Below are positions 4,921 to 28,197 of a stretch of 32,000 nucleotides of DNA, piece after piece (positions within the stretch are counted from its first letter, which is position 1; each line of letters opens with the position of its first letter). Source of the stretch: Candidatus Harpocratesius repetitus (GTDB lineage: Archaea; Asgardarchaeota; Lokiarchaeia; Sigyniarchaeales; Promethearchaeaceae); contig JAIZWK010000001.1 of assembly GCA_021498095.1 (NCBI GenBank), forward strand, positions 3,630,001 through 3,662,000. The letters are read 5' to 3'. Position numbers and translations under genes: made by a program. The notes under the pieces were generated by a model. That model was not told the DNA's origin. It did not search any database and saw only the letters and a list, made by a program, of their open reading frames with translations.

Positions 4921-5020
4921 AATTGAAGGTATTTTAAACTTCAAAGATTCGATGTTTTTCATTTCATCATCTTAATTCTCCCGACTCAAATCTAAAATAT
5001 CCTTTCTTATTTTTTGTCGA
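4921..5020 (+). repeat. Dispersed 100-bp repeat arm H
   Basis: Ungapped 63/100 identity to arm B. AATTGAAGG start, CCGAC at 4981, GTCGA at 5016. Confidence 0.8.
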
Positions 5021-5242
5021 TTTTACCAAGGTGCCAAATTCAAGATATGTAAATCAAAAATTATGATAAAATCGGCATCAAATTGAAGAATTTATAAAGA
5101 GGATGGTAAATTTTTAATAAATTCTTTGAAAAAATCGAGTTCGACAAAAAAAGAATTGCGATATTTCAGATATAAGTCGGAAATATATGAATGATATTCA
5201 AAAAAGCGTTTAAATTGAAAAAGATAAAATATCCTCAATTAT
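5016..5242 (-). repeat. 227-bp dispersed repeat (arm A, 5141-5240, plus linker), inverted copy of 21551-21777
   Basis: Reverse complement matches 21551-21777 at 208/227 positions with no gaps. Confidence 0.97.
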
Positions 5243-5375
5243 ATGATATTTTTTTACTGACCAGGTTTGATCAAAAATTTTTTTGTTGTTGATAATTTTT
5301 TATCAATATTTCAATTCTTAATAAATAATAATACTACAGAATCTTTTAATAGAAAAAGAAAGAAAACTATTTTTA

Positions 5376-11435: not shown

Positions 11436-11655
11436 GATTATCAACAATGTAACCCAATAATGAAATGCCGCATTTAAATTCATTTACAAGTAAACGTTTA
11501 ATCGAGTGAACATATTTGAATCAGCCCTCAAATATCCCATCCAAATATTCTTTCTTAAAAATATCTAATTTTAATAGATTTTTGGAAATTGCGATGACAA
11601 CATTTATAAAAGTTCTTCGAGAAATGAGGATCACTCATAGGGAGTGTTATTCAGT

Positions 11656-12153
11656 ATGACCGAAAGAAATGAAGAATATTTCAAGCAATTTATTGGGTAT
11701 GAATTTGGACCCGATAAATATCGCGTTAAAGGAAAGAATTTATCCGCCTACAGTGCTGCGATCGGAGATAAAAATCCGAAATTCTACGTAGAAAAAACAG
11801 AAGGTGAAGAAAAACCAGATTATTCGAATATTGTAGCTCATCCCGCTTATGCTGCTACATACACTATTCCGGGTTTGTTAATGCAATTAACTGAAGTAAA
11901 AGATAAAGATGGAAATAAATTGGTTAAAAATATTGGCAAGTTACTACATACTTCACAAGAATATGATTATGATGGTTGCGATCCTTTAACTCCTGCCGAT
12001 AAAAAAGTATATACTGTGGGAAAAATCGTAAATCTATTTTTAAAGAAAGATAAACTTTGGGTAGAATTATTGTTTACTTCCACCAATGCAGATAAAACGA
12101 AAACATTTTGTAGAACAACCGTAAAAGGGTTGTTACGTAAAGGAGGCTTTTAA
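11656..12153 (+). CDS. MaoC/FAS1-type dehydratase, N-terminal-like subunit
   Basis: 'YSAAIGDKNP.F', 'VAHPAY' and 'LLHTSQEYDY' hot-dog motifs. Abuts the next gene (TAAATG). ATG 11656 follows AGGGAG. Confidence 0.8.
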   Translation: MTERNEEYFKQFIGYEFGPDKYRVKGKNLSAYSAAIGDKNPKFYVEKTEGEEKPDYSNIVAHPAYAATYTIPGLLMQLTEVKDKDGNKLVKNIGKLLHTSQEYDYDGCDPLTPADKKVYTVGKIVNLFLKKDKLWVELLFTSTNADKTKTFCRTTVKGLLRKGGF

Positions 12154-12669
12154 ATGGTTGAAGTTGGAACACATATATTAAAAACAGATGGTCCTGTTAC
12201 TCGAGAAATGATAAAAAAATATGCTAGTGCATCAGGAGACCGTAATCCAATTCATATCAACGATGAATTTGCTGAAAAAGTAGGATTAAATGGAGTAATT
12301 GCACATGGAATGCTCTCATTTGGATTCGGTGCTCATCATCTGAATGATTTTGCTGAAGAATTAAATGGACAATTGATTAACTTAGGTTGTGAAATGCGGG
12401 GGATGGTTCGTCCTGGTGATACAATATTGACTCATATCACAGTTAAAGCAATAAATGATAATATTTTGGAGATTGAGATGATTCAGAATTCGAAAATGCC
12501 CCTAAAATTGGAAAAAGCAGGCGAAAGAATTGAAACTTATGAAGGATTGGAGCGCGGATGGGTTAGTGAAAAGGAACAAGATCTGATAAAAACAGAAGAA
12601 ACAGAAAATGGAACCCTAACCTATCGGGAAGCTTTAGTTAATAAAGGCTGGGCTAAAATCCGAATTTAA
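12154..12669 (+). CDS. MaoC-family (R)-specific dehydratase, catalytic subunit
   Basis: Hydratase-2 motif YASASGDRNPIHINDEFA...G.IAHGM. Confidence 0.92.
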   Translation: MVEVGTHILKTDGPVTREMIKKYASASGDRNPIHINDEFAEKVGLNGVIAHGMLSFGFGAHHLNDFAEELNGQLINLGCEMRGMVRPGDTILTHITVKAINDNILEIEMIQNSKMPLKLEKAGERIETYEGLERGWVSEKEQDLIKTEETENGTLTYREALVNKGWAKIRI

Positions 12670-12744
12670 AAAATTAATTAAATGGTTTTTTTTTGAATAT
12701 TTATTTTTTTATTCCTTTATTATTTTCAATTTTAATTCATTAAT

Positions 12745-12873
12745 TTATGAGGTTATAGCAGAATTCGAAAAATTGAAGAAAATTCGGAAATCTTGCATCA
12801 TTTATCCATAAACTCCAAATCTATCCCAATTTTAAAATTGTCGAAAAATCGTTTAAGAAAAATATATATAATT
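12745..12873 (+). repeat. Repeat arm C plus inner extension, inverted copy of 15768-15896
   Basis: 12749-12873 matches the reverse complement of 15768-15892 at 112/125 positions with no gaps. Confidence 0.95.
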
Positions 12874-12881
12874 AAGTCAAT

Positions 12882-12981
12882 AATTCAAGGAAAAATGATG
12901 GAAATGTGAAATTCTTGACCGCATTTAAGGGTTTAAAAATACCGACTAAAATTGTAATTGGATGCGCAGGAGTATTGTCGA
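12882..12981 (+). repeat. Degenerate repeat arm G
   Basis: AATTCAAGG start, CCGAC at 12942 and GTCGA at 12977 fall in the same register as arms H and B. The intervening sequence is diverged. Confidence 0.55.
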
Positions 12982-13043
12982 AAATATTGGCCCAAAAGAT
13001 AGAATTTGATTAAGATAAAAAAAATTGCTAGAGCCTCTTATAT

Positions 13044-14339
13044 TCAGTTATTATTAAGCAACCATTTCCATAATGGTATATATTCTATAGTTTTGTTTTT
13101 CTTTTTGACGATCTGCTCTTCATCCCATGTAATCAATAGCATTTTTTCACATCCTAATTCTTCATTTGCTTTTAACAGCCCTTTTTCTTCGCGGGTTCGA
13201 GTTTTATTTGAATTAATCTTGTAAGAAACTTGAATAAGTTGGATTATCTTTGTTCCAAATTTGATTACAAAATCCACTTCATATTGTTCTGGAGATTTCC
13301 AATAATATATTTCAAAAGGACGCTCATGTTGAATTGATCGTCGTTTCAATTCTAAAAAGACTAAATTCTCAATTTGTCGAGTGATATTACTCTCTGTTCG
13401 GAAGCCAATTTTCGCATTAAGGCCTAAATCCACAGAATAAATTTTTCGTGGGGAACGATGTTGTGTCTTATAGCGTTTGCTGTAAATAGAAAGACTAAAG
13501 AAAAGATATGCTTTTTCTAAATAATCCAAGTATGTTGCAATTAAATTCTTGTTTATCCCTAAAGAACCAGCCAATCGAGAATATGTGTAATAACTTGCAG
13601 GAGTGCTTAAGAAATAGTATGCGATTTTTTCTAAATCATTTGGTTTATGGATTCTATAGCGATAAACAATGTCTTTCATCAGTATTGAGTCAAAAAGATC
13701 ACGCAAATATCGTGGAGAATCATGATATTTGAAAACCTCGGGAAAACCTCCTGAGTCAAGATAATTCTTTAAATGATACATAATAGTTCCGATTTGTTCA
13801 TCACTATAACCTTGAAAACTAAACTTTTTTAAGGATAAATACTCTTGAAAGCTAAAGGGAAAAAGGTCGTAACGAAGAAATCGGCCGGTTAGGTAGGTAC
13901 TCAATTCTGAACTTAGCAATGATGAATTACTTCCTGTTATTAAGACTGTGTATTTACGACGGAGGAGTCTATTAACAAACATTTCCCATTTTGGTTGATT
14001 TTGTGGTTCGTCGAGTAAAAGAGTTGATACCTTTCCATAAATATGATGAACAGCAGTTAGAATTTCCTGAAATCCATCAGTTCCTAAATCTCCTAAACGT
14101 TCATCATCGAAATTGATATATCCATACTTAACATTTTCATCAGAATCATTAATATCGTTAGAGATGCTAGAATAAAGGAGTTGATGAGCAAATGTACTCT
14201 TCCCTGATCGACGTACTCCCATAATAATAATTGCGATCCCTCTTTCCAATGGCACTTGAAGTTGACGTGGAATGATTTGGTTGCTTAAGAATAATTCTTG
14301 AATTTCCTTTTTCTGATCTCGAAGAATCTTTTCAAACAA
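13044..14339 (-). CDS. AAA+ ATPase (AAA_14) with DUF4143 and C-terminal nuclease-like motif
   Basis: Walker A GVRRSGKS, Walker B LLDEPQ, ITGSNS, 'SGGFPE', 'RKIYSVDLG', 'ENLVFLEL', 'EVDFV'. Confidence 0.92.
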   Translation of the reverse strand: MFEKILRDQKKEIQELFLSNQIIPRQLQVPLERGIAIIIMGVRRSGKSTFAHQLLYSSISNDINDSDENVKYGYINFDDERLGDLGTDGFQEILTAVHHIYGKVSTLLLDEPQNQPKWEMFVNRLLRRKYTVLITGSNSSLLSSELSTYLTGRFLRYDLFPFSFQEYLSLKKFSFQGYSDEQIGTIMYHLKNYLDSGGFPEVFKYHDSPRYLRDLFDSILMKDIVYRYRIHKPNDLEKIAYYFLSTPASYYTYSRLAGSLGINKNLIATYLDYLEKAYLFFSLSIYSKRYKTQHRSPRKIYSVDLGLNAKIGFRTESNITRQIENLVFLELKRRSIQHERPFEIYYWKSPEQYEVDFVIKFGTKIIQLIQVSYKINSNKTRTREEKGLLKANEELGCEKMLLITWDEEQIVKKKNKTIEYIPLWKWLLNNN

Positions 14340-14377
14340 TATGAAAACCCAATTAAATTAAGTGAATTCAAATATAT

Positions 14378-14490
14378 AAATTTTGGCTAATAAATTGACT
14401 AAAAATTTAAAATTATGATTAGTAAATTAACTAAAATTTTAAAATTTTGGTTAGTATCATGACAATATTTTTAAAAATATGGCTAAGATA
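14378..14490. repeat. 32-bp degenerate tandem repeat (~3.5 units) with internal palindrome TTAGT-N6-ACTAA
   Basis: Units start at 14378, 14410, 14442 and 14474. Unit 2 carries the perfect palindrome. Confidence 0.8.
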
Positions 14491-14640
14491 AAATTTAATA
14501 TTTGATTTTTTTTCAAAATTTAAAAGTAACCAAAGCATATTTTTGTTAATAATAACTGTTTTTATAACGCAAGCACATTTTATTCTAAAAATATGCATCT
14601 ATTTCATTAGAACGTTAAAAAGATATAGTATTTATCAATA

Positions 14641-15744
14641 TTAAAAAAAAATAGAATTGTTATTTGCAAGATCCCATAAGAAATAAACCAAAAACAAAAT
14701 TACAAAACTGAATGTTGTGATAACATAAGTTTTAGTATAAATTTTAAATTGATTTCTGGAAGAAGGGTGATTTTTCGATGAATTTTTATTTTCTACTCCA
14801 TCTTTCATATCATTTATTTCTTGAGTGGATTTATTATAATCTACTGAATTATTTTTAAATACATTCAATTTTTGAGAAATTCTACTCTGAATCATGTTGA
14901 AAATAAGCACAGAAATCCAGATCATGAATGAAGCTTTTAGAGTCACCACTTGAGGCCAAAAAAAAAGTTCATAATCGACAAATATCCCTGCCATATACCA
15001 CATCTGGGTAATATACCCGTCAAATATTGGTAAACAATTCAGAATAAATAAAAGCGCCTGTCTAGCAGGGATTGAAGCATGATTTTTTTCTAATAAGAAA
15101 TAAGAGAGGTGATTTAAATATCCATATATGCCGATAAATAGCGCATAGAAACACCATTTATACAATTTTAGATAAAAACCTACGAAATAAATTTCGCTAA
15201 AAATAAAATCTAAGAACCATAACAATCCTAAACCGATAAAATATATTCCGATAATTATCCATTTCGGTAAATTCTCTAATGAGTACTTTTTTGTTGCTAC
15301 TTTCTGGCTTTGTCCAATCTTAGTATCACGTGTTTTTATTGTCCAATACAACCCGATGCTAACCATATTTGCCAAGATAATTAAAATAAATACAGAATTA
15401 TTTTCAGTAAACAGATTCCTTAACCATTTTCCCAGAAAGGATTCATTAGGATTAGAGATATTCCAAATTGGTTTAAGAAAAAGCCACCAAAGGCGCCAAA
15501 AATTCGGAAATTCTCCTTCTACTGCTGGAGCTGATATTTGCAGATAATCATATAAAGCAAGCATGTCGTCTGTAAAAAAAGGCAACGAGTTTCTCAATCG
15601 AATAGGTCCTTTATAAACAATAAAAATATAGAAGCTAAGGATTAACGTAAAGCTCACATAAGATATACAGATACCAAAAAGCCACTTCGCTGTCTGATAA
15701 CCCCATTTCAGCAATTTTTTTGAGTTATTTTGAATATTTTTCAT
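14641..15744 (-). CDS. Hypothetical polytopic membrane protein
   Basis: 367-aa ORF with about 8 aromatic-rich hydrophobic segments and AGGAG upstream. Family not recognised. Confidence 0.75.
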   Translation of the reverse strand: MKNIQNNSKKLLKWGYQTAKWLFGICISYVSFTLILSFYIFIVYKGPIRLRNSLPFFTDDMLALYDYLQISAPAVEGEFPNFWRLWWLFLKPIWNISNPNESFLGKWLRNLFTENNSVFILIILANMVSIGLYWTIKTRDTKIGQSQKVATKKYSLENLPKWIIIGIYFIGLGLLWFLDFIFSEIYFVGFYLKLYKWCFYALFIGIYGYLNHLSYFLLEKNHASIPARQALLFILNCLPIFDGYITQMWYMAGIFVDYELFFWPQVVTLKASFMIWISVLIFNMIQSRISQKLNVFKNNSVDYNKSTQEINDMKDGVENKNSSKNHPSSRNQFKIYTKTYVITTFSFVILFLVYFLWDLANNNSIFF

Positions 15745-15767
15745 TTTTATTTCTCCTTTTGATTTAA

Positions 15768-15896
15768 AATTATATATTTTTTTCTTAAACGATGTTTCGA
15801 CAAATTTAAAATTGGGATAGATTTGGGTTTTGTGGATAGTCGATGCAAGATTTTCGGATTTCCTTCAATTTTTTGAATTCTGCTATAACCTCTTAT
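15768..15896 (-). repeat. Repeat arm D plus inner extension, inverted copy of arm C
   Basis: 112/125 identity to arm C. TCGAC at 15797 and CCTC at 15889. Confidence 0.95.
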
Positions 15897-16095
15897 GAAG
15901 TTTTTTTGTTTTAAAAATAAAGGACATACAAATAATTTCGTATTTTTCATTAACAAAAAAAAAATATTGAAATATAAAAAACTTCAAATCATTAAAGTTT
16001 TGAGGGAGTATTCACTATTTTTTTGTATTTCCCTAAATAATCATGATTTTGCCACATCTTCTCTATATTTGTATCATGGAATTTTTTAATTTAAC

Positions 16096-16287
16096 GTGGG
16101 GCTTCAAGAATATCAGGGAAGAATTCTTGCTTTTTGCACCAATCAAAGAAACGACAAAAATCTCCAAAAAATCGTTCAAAATGGTCATATCTAAAAATCA
16201 GCTTCAAGTTCTCAGCAATATCAGTGCTTAACTTGCGGATGATCATTTTACGGATATACAAGTCCTGAGTTTCAATCAATTGTGTAA
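16096..16287 (+). pseudogene. Possible decayed IS1-like (InsA-type) zinc-ribbon gene fragment
   Basis: One frame reads AFCTNQRNDKNLQKIVQNGHI*KSASSSQQYQCLTCG*SF, with in-frame stops. Resembles C..IV.NG...Q.Y.C..C zinc ribbons. Confidence 0.35.
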
Positions 16288-16983
16288 AACATGCATTCTT
16301 TGCCTTACTCTCAATTTAGGGCAAACGGTTAAATACAAGCACAATTTCGACTACATTAAATGTAAAATCTTCCGCTGTAACACGATTGTTCTATATAATC
16401 TTAGAATAATCTTAGAATAAATTTCAAAATCATTTAATTATAAAGATTTGCGCGAAAACAATCGAATTTCGATTGGTTCAGTCCCGAAGTGCTTGAGTGT
16501 TATTAAAGATAATTCTATAAGTGCCAAATCTATAACTTAAAAGAACGAAGCTCGCTTAATGAAATAAGAAAGAATCTGATAAAAAGAGATTAAAAATAAA
16601 GAGAATCTGCATTATTATCATTAAAGTTCTTATATTAAATATAATGATTTAAAAATTCAAAGGTTGATTTCAATTAACTGTAAAAATTGAAGGATTAAAA
16701 TTAAATATTTATTAATAGCTCATTAAGAATAGCAAATAGTATTTTAGAAAGATGAATTCATAATAAAAAAGAAAAAGATCAAATAAAAACAGAAGAAAGT
16801 AAAGAGCAAAAATAGAATAAGGGAATTATATTAGAAATAACGCTCAAAATAGAAAAGAAGTCTTTAAATATAGAGTCATTAATGGTTGAATTGTCACAAA
16901 AAATGATCCAAAACCTTTAACTCAGCGACGCATTACCGAAAGTGATTGAGATTGATGTATTTTTTCAAGAATTTAAAAAATGA

Positions 16984-17997
<1,014 letters not shown>

Positions 17998-18040
17998 GTA
18001 ACTACTTTATTTACATAAAACCTTTTTTTCTCTTATTTGT

Positions 18041-18140
18041 TTATGAGGTTCTAGTAGCATCTTTATTTTTGACTGAATTACCATTTTCATCTTTAGTTTT
18101 CCGACAATAATCAATTCTATCCAAGAATTATTTCAGTCGG
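18041..18140 (+). repeat. Repeat arm F
   Basis: TTATGAGGTT start identical to arm C. CCGAC at 18101, CTATCC and GTCGG at 18136 are all in register. Confidence 0.75.
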
Positions 18141-18237
18141 CAAAAATGAACTTTAGAAAATATAATTATGGGTCGATTTTTGACTATTTTTAATCAAATT
18201 ATAGTTGAACTTGATAAAAAAAGTTCTAAATTTCTGA

Positions 18238-18337
18238 TCGACAAATTTCAAATTAGGATGGAATATTGATAAATGCGTAAATTATGCAGGATTTTTATTT
18301 TTTTATTAATCTATCAAATGTTGATAAAAGCTCTTAT
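18238..18337 (-). repeat. Repeat arm E
   Basis: 65/100 ungapped identity to arm D (TCGACAAATTT ... TCTTAT). Confidence 0.75.
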
Positions 18338-18474
18338 CTTTCAGTTACTATTCTTGATATTTATTGTAATAATGAAAGTGATTATTTTCCTTTTATTTAT
18401 CAAAATTCTCAAAAATCCAATAGGTTAAATAATTGTCTGATGATAATTTATAGTGGATTAGAGAAATTCATGAG

Positions 18475-18909
18475 ATGGTTAAATTTATGATAATACTAGA
18501 AGAAATCTGGTTTATTAATGATTATGGAATTTGCCTTTTTAATTATTCCATTGATAAAAAGATGGACCCAGAATTATTCAGCCCAATATTTACTGCAATC
18601 AACCAATTTGGGCAAAAAGCAGTAAAAAATTCAATCAATGAAATTTCCATGGGTAAAAATTATCTTTTGAGTTTGGATATCCCTGATTATAAATTAAAAT
18701 TAGTTGGAAGGACCAGCCAAACTAAAAATCGGGAGATAATGGAAAAAATGCTAATTGAAATTGCTGAAAAATTTAAAAATCATTTTACTGTTGAAGAGAT
18801 TGCTCAATATAAAGGACAGGTTGATCAATTTGCACCCTTTTCCCAGTTTATCACTGCATATTTCGATCAACAAGAACAGCTAATTCAAAATTTTAAATCC
18901 ATTCTTTAA
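18475..18909 (+). CDS. Longin-like domain protein
   Basis: Asgard longin pattern: 'IWFINDYGICLF' hairpin, 'DPELFSPIFTAINQFG' helix, strands, 'LIEIAEKF...F' helix, 'VDQFAPF'. Confidence 0.75.
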   Translation: MVKFMIILEEIWFINDYGICLFNYSIDKKMDPELFSPIFTAINQFGQKAVKNSINEISMGKNYLLSLDIPDYKLKLVGRTSQTKNREIMEKMLIEIAEKFKNHFTVEEIAQYKGQVDQFAPFSQFITAYFDQQEQLIQNFKSIL

Positions 18910-18964
18910 TTAATACTTTGATTAGATCTTTATCCTATTTTTTAATTCATTCTCTAATATTAAG

Positions 18965-19498
18965 TTAAATTTTAATTTGATCCTTTCGGTTTTTTTCATT
19001 TTTTTGAAATACACTTAGTTTTGGAAATAAACAGCCTGTTGAACGTTGGTATTCAATATATTTTTCTCCAAAACGGCGTACTAAATCCGCTTCTTCAATT
19101 TTAATCATGATTGGAGTATAAATAATAATAAAAATCAACGAAATCAAAGTAGCAGTCCATGAATTAGTCATTAAGCCCATAATCACCCACATTGGAAATT
19201 CTCCAATCGTTTGTGGATGGCGAACGTATTTATAGATTCCAGTATATAGAGATGTATCTTCTGATGGAACCATGGTTTCTTTCCCTGCATCCCGCATTCC
19301 AATACTAAAAATTATTCCGAATGGAATCAACAATAAGATACCAGTTAATAACGCATGCCATAATTTAGGAAATATAGGAAAGAATAAATTTGGGATTGGA
19401 AAAATAGCCCATAATATTAAATTTATTAAAGTAATTGTTTCAAATATTGAGGCAATCTTCATAATATACTTTTTAACTATCCAAAAGATCCTAAACAA
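18965..19498 (-). CDS. Isoprenylcysteine carboxyl methyltransferase / PEMT-family membrane methyltransferase
   Basis: 'LYTGIYKYVRHP' and 'EEADLVRRFGEKYIEYQRST..LFP' motifs. Confidence 0.9.
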   Translation of the reverse strand: MFRIFWIVKKYIMKIASIFETITLINLILWAIFPIPNLFFPIFPKLWHALLTGILLLIPFGIIFSIGMRDAGKETMVPSEDTSLYTGIYKYVRHPQTIGEFPMWVIMGLMTNSWTATLISLIFIIIYTPIMIKIEEADLVRRFGEKYIEYQRSTGCLFPKLSVFQKNEKNRKDQIKI

Positions 19499-19584
19499 AT
19501 TAAATTTATAAAAGATTCAATAAATAAATTTCCTGAACCATCAAAGCCAATGAAATTAGATCTTGATATTTAATGTGATTTTAA

Positions 19585-20058
19585 ATGATTGAAATCTCTC
19601 CTTTAAAGCCAGATCATGATTTTAATGGATTTGATTGCGGAGAAAAATTAATTAATGATTTTCTGAAAAATGAATCAAGAAATCAGCAAAAATGGAATAT
19701 TTCCAATATTTATGTAATTTATAAAGATAACAAGGTTATAGCTTATTCTGCATTGTTTTCTTGCCACTTTAGATACAAAAATGAAGAATTAAATAGAAAA
19801 GTGAGAATTCCAGGAATATGTATTGGTCAACTAGGTGTAGATAAAAAATATAAAAAGAATGGGTTAGGGAAATATTTAATTCAACATTCAATATCAGTCG
19901 CAAATAAAATAAGAAAACTAGTTGGTTGTAGAATAATTTATGTTGAAGCTTTAGAAAATGCGAAGAAATATTGGGAAAGATTCAATTTTAAAGAAATTGA
20001 AAAAAAAGGAAAAAATCAATTTAAAATGGTATTTGATATTAATTGTAATGATGAATAA
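19585..20058 (+). CDS. GNAT acetyltransferase, AtaT/TacT-like
   Basis: 'FDCGE..IN.FLK', 'IPGICIGQLGVDKKYKKNGLG', 'IYVEALENAKKYWERFNF'. Confidence 0.88.
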   Translation: MIEISPLKPDHDFNGFDCGEKLINDFLKNESRNQQKWNISNIYVIYKDNKVIAYSALFSCHFRYKNEELNRKVRIPGICIGQLGVDKKYKKNGLGKYLIQHSISVANKIRKLVGCRIIYVEALENAKKYWERFNFKEIEKKGKNQFKMVFDINCNDE

Positions 20059-20300
20059 TTTTTATTAATAAATAGCAAAGAATAACATTTAAACCAATTT
20101 TATGTTGCTAAATTGAAGTTCAAGTGACAATTTACTCAGTGAAAAAAGTTATTCAGAAAGCGTGTTATTATCTTTCTCATTTCTCCTTTTTTTTACCCAA
20201 TCTAATTTATCAACTATAACTATTTTTATAATGATTAACAATTTTTATTCATTAGAAGAAACTAATAATTATTACCGTGTTTTATATATCATTGAGAAAT

Positions 20301-21550: not shown

Positions 21551-21777
21551 ATAATTGAGGATATTTTATCTTTTTTAATTTAAACGCTTTTTTGAATATC
21601 ATTTATATATATCCGACTTAAATCTGAAATGTCGCAATTCTTTTTTTGTCGAACTCGATTTTTTCAAAGAATTTGTTAAATATTTACCATCCTGTTTATA
21701 AATTCTTCAATTTGAAGTCGATTCTATTAAAATTATTGATTTTCATACCTTGAATTTGGTACGTTGATAAAATCGAC
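21551..21777 (+). repeat. 227-bp dispersed repeat (arm B, 21553-21652, plus linker), ending at TCGAC
   Basis: 208/227 identity to the reverse complement of 5016-5242. Homology stops after TCGAC at 21773-21777. Confidence 0.97.
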
Positions 21778-28098: not shown

Positions 28099-28197
28099 TG
28101 GGCCCACTCGGGCTCGAACCGAGGACCTCCTGCACGTCAAGCAGGCGTATATGCCAGAAATTCAAAGAATTTCTTATAACCACTATACTATGAGCCC
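28099..28197 (-). tRNA. tRNA-Val(GAC) with a non-canonical D-arm intron (best fit 28151-28174)
   Basis: Acceptor GGGCTCA/TGGGCCC-A, anticodon arm CCTGC-TTGACGT-GCAGG, T arm CTCGG-TTCGAGC-CCGAG. A ~24-nt insert in the D arm forms a bulge-helix-bulge. Confidence 0.95.

Follow-up and report, generated by a model that had tools for sequence, protein, structure and literature searches.

Two independent MITE insertions probably account for an inverted repeat around an ATPase gene and a membrane protein gene in Candidatus Harpocratesius repetitus

In the current work, we characterized an inverted repeat that brackets two genes between maoC and gap in Candidatus Harpocratesius repetitus. The bracket most probably records two independent, recent insertions of a MITE beside pre-existing accessory genes and is not a cassette, a reading to which we assign a probability of about 0.85. 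The window (i.e., the whole stretch of DNA analysed) spans 32,000 nt, and positions refer to it unless genome positions are stated. An earlier note on this DNA had described inverted arms C and D, identical at 112 of 125 positions, and this was borne out by a 128-nt inverted repeat whose arms (12746-12873 and 15768-15895) are 89% complementary and separated by 2,894 nt. The repeat is far beyond chance because C and D are both members of a family of repeats that has 35 genomic matches. "Arm G," which the note had counted as an extra arm, is nothing of the kind; C and G form the 5' portion and the middle of a single uninterrupted element on the plus strand (12749-13037), with an end-to-end spacing of 289 bp. 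Arm D is not a full element and consists of an exact 125-nt 5' fragment on the minus strand (15768-15892). The contents of the bracket had been named correctly as an AAA+/DUF4143 ATPase, which Pfam supports, and a membrane protein, which has several hydrophobic spans.

The repeat family, here termed family A, comprises 35 matches in the 4.36-Mb genome, about 30 of them full-length copies and several of them fragments, and all copies are intergenic. The element is 289 bp long and non-coding, with only a 4-codon reading frame present, and it is bounded by 12-bp terminal inverted repeats in which the 5' end, GAGGTTATAGCA, and the reverse complement of the 3' end, GAGGCTCTAGCA, match at 10 of 12 positions. 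Perfect 4-bp target duplications, all AT-rich, flank 27 of 29 full copies. One TTAA within a separate repeat is empty in two copies of that repeat (genome 360740-360820 and 512712-512792), filled by the MITE in a third (1493874) and filled by an insertion sequence (IS) in a fourth, with TTAA duplicated by both insertions. The suggestion that short MITE-like elements share the ends seen here was therefore sound, and duplications and filled and empty sites show the family to be truly mobile. The arms are MITE sequence on several counts: short and non-coding structure, terminal inverted repeats, a duplication of fixed length, dispersed copies, filled and empty sites and a related IS. Copies that are 100% identical to one another imply that transposition may be recent or ongoing. 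Two longer elements between MITE ends, candidates of 2,561 and 4,985 bp, were rejected as merely neighboring MITEs of different families.

The related IS is 1,825 bp long (genome 2233279-2235103), encodes a DDE transposase of 496 aa (PF01609) and has a 4-bp duplication, TTAA; one copy with an uninterrupted 496-aa reading frame is present. Its left end, GAGGATCTAGCAATTTTT, is nearly identical to the reverse complement of the MITE 3' end, GAGGCTCTAGCAATTTTT. Given this similarity of the ends, the equal duplication length and the shared target, the IS is likely to be the autonomous partner of the MITE. Sulfolobus SM elements are an example of archaeal MITEs. MITEs are counted among archaeal mobile elements (PMC13343696). 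The element described here agrees with archaeal and bacterial MITEs in its 289-bp, non-coding structure, terminal inverted repeats, fixed duplication, dozens of copies, intergenic placement and IS-shared ends, but differs from them in that we regard it as a new sequence family and in that its partner IS does not reach the thresholds set for named IS families. No copy of the MITE turned up in two relatives (genomes G001 and G002), and its sequence pattern had no match beyond the source genome among GTDB species genomes; it was otherwise seen only in low-depth contigs of one marine-sediment metagenome. Nothing specific to MITEs in Asgard archaea was found in the literature.

The two arms have separate pedigrees within this family. 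Arms C and D belong to different subfamilies (A1 and A2, respectively) and are 89.6% identical to each other. Copy C is 99.7% identical over its full length to a copy at genome position 2571858, three other copies match its first 125 nt at 100% identity, and C carries its own complete duplication, with TTAT at 12745-12748 on its left and again at 13038-13041 on its right, the latter 2 nt past the ATPase stop codon. Arm D matches a copy at genome position 3442433 at 125 of 125 nt and then switches abruptly to native sequence. When 35 copies were placed at random in intergenic DNA by simulation, a pair fell within 3.2 kb in 63% of cases and a pair in opposite orientation did so in 38%. The pairing of C and D is by itself not statistically unusual. 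One observation counts against independent insertions, namely that the outer flanks of C and D (the latter at 15893-15896) are both TTAT, as expected if a unit had transposed. However, TTAT is the commonest target of the MITE (10 of 29 copies), and the flank of D read in its own orientation, ATAA, lies on the 5' side of 4 of the 29 copies, which puts the probability of a match by chance at about 0.14.

Comparison with relatives placed the genes at this site without the arms. In a same-genus relative the order pgk, gap, membrane gene, ATPase and maoC is the same as here, as are the orientations, and neither arm occurs at either junction. This arm-free locus is present in two assemblies (G002 contig C104 and a 99.97% identical NCBI/JGI contig, 15,925 bp). 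The relatives are metagenome bins, from which repeats may drop out during assembly, yet the relative's contig crosses both junctions with different sequence. A synteny check proposed in the earlier note, for direct adjacency of maoC and gap without the 3.15-kb segment, was positive in two relatives, with about 170 nt between maoC and gap in G010 and about 120 nt in G001. At the same time, conservation of both genes at the same site in a relative lacking the repeats was the first half of what the note had named as speaking against a cassette, and this is what the arm-free locus presents. Moreover, the borders of presence and absence relative to G001 lie at about 12663 and 16960, off the arm ends. 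The native 23-nt leader of the membrane gene, TTAAATCAAARGGAG...ATG (15745-15767, minus strand, with GGAG at -12 to -9), is common to the relative, and the sequence upstream of this leader has been replaced by arm D. The relative offers no clean empty site that a single step would turn into C or D, and the site for C is only approximate, because the DNA between the genes there has diverged and includes about 190 nt peculiar to the relative.

Between arm D and the conserved region upstream of gap lie 796 nt of single-copy sequence (15897-16692) that has no second copy in the genome and contains no repeat, Pfam match or recognizable gene. This stretch was not found in the two same-genus genomes, and no homolog of it was found. 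The region upstream of gap itself (16693-16995, plus strand) is homologous to that of the relative, in which a repeat of it sits beside the membrane gene; the three copies are about equally alike, which speaks neither for nor against a donor resembling the source genome. In the relative, direct repeats of roughly 130 nt surround the membrane gene and might mark integration by homologous recombination.

The ATPase (13044-14339, minus strand) is a protein of 431 aa with a TTG start codon that matches AAA_14 (2e-30) and DUF4143 (3.8e-20) in Pfam. Against the PADLOC profile PDC-S01 it scores 7.5e-102, with residues 22-429 aligned to model positions 10-408 of 412. DUF4143 has been listed in the PD-(D/E)XK nuclease superfamily with unknown function (PMC3424549). 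As in the AAA+ ATPases of PDC-S01/COG1373, AAA_14 and DUF4143 occur together, the profile match runs end to end and the distribution is patchy; unlike in PDC-S01, there is an adjacent membrane gene that falls outside the PDC-S01 definition. We treat a defence role of the ATPase as a candidate annotation only. The gene is accessory and patchily distributed, with nine paralogs in the genome at 27-37% identity and no near-identical copy. Upstream of it, two tandem 32-nt repeats, partly palindromic (14396-14458), are conserved in the relative. The membrane protein (14641-15744, minus strand; 367 aa) is an orphan encoded by a single-copy gene; it had no match to any family in Pfam, NCBIfam, PADLOC or the ESM Atlas that would indicate a function. 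It was found only in the source genome, in the same-genus relative (92% identity) and as one 63% homolog, and a pattern search for the gene in JGI metagenomes matched only a contig that was already known.

Synonymous divergence from the relative (dS) is 0.42 for the ATPase and 0.08 for the membrane gene, compared to 1.4-2.5 or saturation for six flanking genes; the dN/dS of the membrane gene is 0.45. Over its first 113 nt, the intergenic sequence between the two genes is almost identical in the two genomes. On sequence grounds, we conclude that both are true accessory genes that were recently exchanged, and that they did not travel on MITE ends.

Based on these observations, we propose the following history. 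The maoC-gap region would be a small accessory-gene site in this Lokiarchaeia-type Asgard archaeon, and both genes were probably acquired or swapped within the genus when its species had long since separated, by some means in which the repeats played no part. Long afterwards, the 289-bp MITE, which appears to be a non-autonomous element with ends GAGGYTMTAGCA and a 4-bp AT-rich duplication, would have inserted twice independently, from two different source copies, and the DDE transposase of the 1,825-bp IS probably mobilized it in trans. A subfamily A1 copy presumably landed 2 nt past the stop codon of the ATPase and stayed intact. A subfamily A2 copy presumably inserted upstream of the membrane gene, where a later deletion would have stripped it of all sequence beyond position 125 and may also have taken the native promoter region as far as -24. 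The TATA-like stretch of the MITE at -42 to -26 could then serve as the promoter of the membrane gene. With two independent insertions, the inverted-repeat bracket would be a by-product, and since two separate MITE insertions flank pre-existing genes, what remains would be commonplace transposon debris rather than a cassette that carries genes.

Another feature of the locus is the position of arm D, which is fused 23 nt upstream of the ATG of the membrane gene. The TATA-like motif noticed there in the earlier reading is real: AAGAAAAAAATATATAA lies inside the MITE on the minus strand, running from 15786 to 15770, with its end 26 nt short of the ATG (15744). TTTAWA motifs in the genome as a whole peak at -31 to -28 from ATG codons. 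It is plausible that the stretch from -42 to -26 is now the promoter of the membrane gene. Promoter donation by small repeat elements is exemplified by the Correia elements of Neisseria. Arm D resembles these in bringing an element-borne promoter-like motif next to a start codon and in having replaced the native upstream DNA, but the MITE family differs from them in having no orientation bias toward downstream genes (15 copies co-oriented vs. 15 opposed). Because there is no such bias, a promoter role, if there is one, would be a one-off event at this site, not a property of the family.

A more far-reaching explanation, which we consider unlikely, goes one step further than two insertions: the orphan membrane gene, itself recently transferred, would have recruited the MITE fragment as its promoter and, in addition, the outward ends would make the ATPase and membrane gene block a new composite that the resident DDE transposase could move. 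If true, the locus would show a transposon with cargo at the very first stage of its formation. The second part of this idea may also be considered separately, i.e., that a bracket produced by two independent insertions is now movable as a unit by the IS transposase. A complete 5' terminal repeat does stand at both borders in the correct inverted orientation, the identical MITE copies discussed above argue for recent or ongoing activity, and the intact 496-aa frame of the IS could supply the enzyme. On the other hand, no second copy of the unit exists in the genome, and in full elements as they occur naturally a 5'-type end is combined with a 3'-type end, whereas the block has two 5'-type ends; we rate such mobility as quite improbable.

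The proposal in the earlier note that MITE ends had carried the two genes as cargo did not hold up. It would require a 3,144-bp unit (12749-15892) to have transposed in as one piece, on two outward 5' MITE ends and with transposase supplied in trans. Mobile insertion cassettes with such an arrangement exist; MIC231 of Bacillus cereus has IS-type inverted ends, passenger genes and no transposase. The locus studied here shares with MIC231 the inverted IS-type ends around passenger genes and the lack of a transposase inside, while a candidate trans-acting transposase is intact elsewhere in the genome. Both borders end in the same outward-facing 13-nt terminus, GAGGTTATAGCAG, and the outer flanks agree, a match that chance alone could produce at the probability given above. 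In contrast to MIC231, however, the relative has the cargo at this site without any such ends, each end arrived on its own and one of them is truncated, and the unit is single-copy, as is the membrane gene, with no ATPase paralog above 37% identity. Together with the different subfamilies of the arms, each identical to other copies, the inner TTAT duplication of C and the G001 borders that miss the arm ends, this makes a cassette very improbable.

Equally hard to credit is an invertible segment in which recombination between the arms flips the two genes and switches promoters: an inverted repeat of 125-128 nt is present and a promoter-like motif lies at the inner edge of arm D, but no recombinase gene occurs in or beside the segment (the neighbors are maoC and gap), the arms are merely 89.6% identical, the orientation is the same as in the arm-free relative, and a flip would not clearly uncouple the TATA-like stretch from the gene because that stretch is inside the arm. 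Short-read contigs from a source-like run break at both arms (pieces 11500-12774, 13013-15797 and 15866-17500), and the "opposite strands" joints from 12866/12871 to 15777 trace to contigs of high depth that represent other full MITE copies and fit either arm. These contigs thus speak neither for nor against an inversion or an excision.

With two independent MITE insertions as the preferred explanation, a false lead is removed, since no new kind of transposase-free gene cassette is present at this locus. What the analysis provides in its place is a fully specified MITE/IS pair, apparently active in recent times, from an Asgard archaeon whose genome is closed, together with a clear local case of what appears to be recent gene flow between two congeneric species, in which the two accessory genes with their low dS lie among core genes saturated at synonymous sites. 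Such markers may be used to date insertions, to spot assembly breaks and to track accessory and defence genes in the closest archaeal relatives of eukaryotes.

Two genes in the closed genome of Candidatus Harpocratesius repetitus (4.36 Mb, about 30% GC) are enclosed, as the earlier note had claimed, by inverted arms, which form a repeat of 128 nt (12746-12873 vs. 15768-15895, 89% complementary). Both genes lie on the minus strand, and encode an ATPase with AAA_14 and DUF4143 domains (13044-14339) and a 367-aa membrane protein with several hydrophobic spans and no family match (14641-15744). The locus is flanked by a MaoC-type dehydratase pair (11644-12669) and by gap, encoding a class I GAPDH (16996-17997). 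The 796 nt that separate the right-hand arm, D, from the upstream region of gap (15897-16692) are unique and seemingly non-coding, without a counterpart in the same-genus genomes, and no homolog was found for a 74-codon frame on their minus strand (16091-16315). Upstream of the ATPase gene, two tandem, partly palindromic 32-nt units (14396-14458) are kept in a same-genus relative, G002, and may be a regulator binding site. The bracketed genes had been read as a transposase-free cassette or invertible segment. With a probability of roughly 0.85, we regard the arrangement not as a cassette, but as two independent insertions, one of them truncated, of a MITE family that is new yet ordinary, around pre-existing, recently exchanged accessory genes.

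Contig C104 of G002 carries pgk, gap, the membrane gene, the ATPase gene, two maoC genes and an aminotransferase gene in the order and orientation of the window, and a 15,925-bp contig that is 99.97% identical (NCBI and JGI) shows the same arrangement. The relative aligns to the window in three blocks (11578-12693, 13016-15770, and 16693-17997), and neither D nor the left-hand arm, C, was found in it, on a contig that crosses both junctions. At the left junction it carries 234 nt of its own, and at the right junction 36 nt separate the common leader from the gap upstream region. Direct adjacency of maoC and gap, which the earlier note had proposed to look for, was indeed seen in the closed genome of G010, from another genus, and in G001, from the same genus, but G002 holds both genes without the repeats, which is the first half of what the earlier note had named as speaking against its reading. 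Comparison of G002 with G010 and G001 therefore indicates that the two genes form an accessory insertion that also occurs where the arms are missing. The MITE family of the arms, family A, was not found in G001 or G002, a result that is weak alone as both are draft bins, with completeness of 87% and 92%.

A genome search with the left arm showed that its similarity extends past 125 nt, reaching 289 nt at about 30 sites. Aligned with flanking sequence, the copies begin at GAGGTTATAGCA and end at TGCTAGAGCCTC; all are intergenic. A perfect 4-bp direct duplication is present at 27 of 29 copies, with bases that vary among them (TTAT 10, TTAA 6, ATAA 4, ATAT 3, plus others). Within the element, self-similarity is weak, and clear inversion is confined to the 12-nt ends. 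Family A is a textbook MITE. Because copies run 289 nt with set ends and duplications, arm C and the supposed extra arm G just inward of it are the 5′ and middle parts of a single complete copy (12749-13037), flanked on both sides by TTAT (12745-12748 and 13038-13041), the right-hand TTAT lying 2 nt past the ATPase stop codon.

At 125/125 positions, arm D (minus strand, 15892 to 15768) agrees with a copy at genome position 3442433, after which it changes abruptly to TTAAATCAAAAGGAGAAATAAAA-ATG. Since the relative's leader comprises the same 23 nt save one base (G for A in the AAAAGGAG stretch), the leader is native, and arm D is therefore a MITE truncated beyond position 125 and fused to the gene at -24. 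Similarity out to 15741, suggested by BLAST, was rejected as a weak chance resemblance. Over the 125 common positions, three other copies match arm C at 100% (subfamily A1) and several match arm D at 100% or 99.2% (subfamily A2), whereas C and D share 89.6% identity. As each matches other copies better than its partner, the arms are separate, recent insertions from two source copies. When 35 copies were placed randomly in intergenic DNA, a pair 0.3-3.2 kb apart arose in 63% of trials, and such a pair in opposite orientation in 38%. The outer TTAT flanks of C and D do match, with a chance probability of about 0.14, and a complete duplication of its own already flanks copy C. The short-read contigs examined break within the arms. 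A cassette built on these ends is contradicted by the different subfamilies of C and D and by a relative that has the genes without them.

Scanning for paired similar ends with matching 4-bp flanks revealed an IS of 1,825 bp with a TTAA duplication (G000:C1:2233279-2235103; L069:501-2325), G000 being the source genome and L069 a stretch of it. The IS contains one uninterrupted reading frame of 496 aa, whose product has a PF01609 DDE transposase domain; similarity to IS1182 and IS1634 is weak and below cut-off. Elsewhere in the genome are a degraded second copy (about 88747-89997) and two paralogs at 32% identity (about 3318266 and 3573357). The left end of the IS, GAGGATCTAGCAATTTTT, is nearly the reverse complement of the family A 3′ end, GAGGCTCTAGCAATTTTT. 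Within a separate repeat of about 170 nt, one TTAA is empty in two copies (360740-360820 and 512712-512792), filled by a family A MITE in a third (1493874-1494162) and by the IS in another (2233279-2235103). Both fillings duplicate the TTAA. Use of one site by both elements suggests a preferred target, and the empty and filled sites together show that the family A MITE moves. Ends, duplication length, and target choice tie the family to the IS transposase, which, judging from these sequence features, would mobilise it in trans.

At least two more MITE families, with 40-55 copies each, occur in the genome. A family B copy (about 40 copies; 5′ end GAGGTTCTAG...) directly follows gap, with TTAT on both sides (18045-18333). 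Family C (about 55 copies, about 320 bp) is present at 4921-5248 and, truncated, at 21553-21777, and these two copies account for the window's 228-nt inverted repeat. In G002 and G010, gap and pgk adjoin; in the window they are kept apart by a 144-aa ORF, a PEMT/ICMT-like gene, a GNAT gene and a MITE (18000-20270), a second local accessory insertion. At G000:C1:1910784-1912148, a 32%-identical ATPase paralog has a family A fragment (element positions 225-298) 65 nt past its stop. A 99-nt tRNA gene (28099-28197; Rfam match 54 bits, missed by ARAGORN) probably carries an archaeal intron; an intron-bearing tRNA is among the features that put the genome with the Lokiarchaeia-type Asgard archaea.

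The BRE/TATA-like stretch noted earlier near the membrane gene's ATG is present: arm D puts AAGAAAAAAATATATAA at -42 to -26, where the relative has unrelated sequence. Genome-wide, TTTAWA peaks at -31 to -28 relative to ATG codons (20-30 counts vs. about 6 background) and GGAG at -15 to -11; the membrane gene has GGAG at -12. The gene is intact and has lost its original upstream DNA, so that, on sequence grounds, the best candidate for its promoter is the MITE fragment. Family A showed no orientation preference toward genes (15 vs. 15).

The ATPase matches PDC-S01, a candidate defence family of PADLOC, from end to end (7.5e-102), and DUF4143 is among the PD-(D/E)XK nuclease-fold families without assigned function (PMC3424549). 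The source genome encodes nine ATPase paralogs (27-37% identity), and the nearest homolog besides the relative's is 42% identical. Among 5.8 billion proteins, only two homologs of the membrane protein were found (92% and 63% identity). Synonymous divergence was compared between 13044-15767 and the relative's stretches L075 and L051, plus six flanking genes. The flanking genes have a dS of 1.4 to 2.5 or are saturated (third-position identity 0.51-0.56), whereas dS is 0.42 for the ATPase gene (0.81) and 0.08 for the membrane gene (0.95; dN/dS 0.45). The ~190 intergenic nt nearest the membrane gene's stop are non-homologous between the two genomes. Given their low dS relative to the flanks, the genes were exchanged between these two species, or drawn from a shared donor pool, long after the two had separated, and the transfers probably fell at separate times. 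They are passengers in this evolutionary sense, but not on MITE ends, which the relative's copy lacks. Since the arms are identical to other MITE copies, they are more recent than the membrane gene's 4.5% divergence from the relative's copy. In the relative, this gene lies between direct repeats of a roughly 130-nt gap-upstream piece (L051:3875-3952 and 5181-5258; 78-nt core, 83% identity); we would guess at integration of a circle by homologous recombination. Low-depth contigs from X3, a marine-sediment metagenome run, cover 13692-15632 with a membrane gene about 99% and an ATPase gene about 88-90% identical, also contain family A pieces, and hint at a third mosaic population. The contrast in dS between the two genes and their flanks points to gene flow that took place recently, at a single chromosomal site, between two species of the genus.
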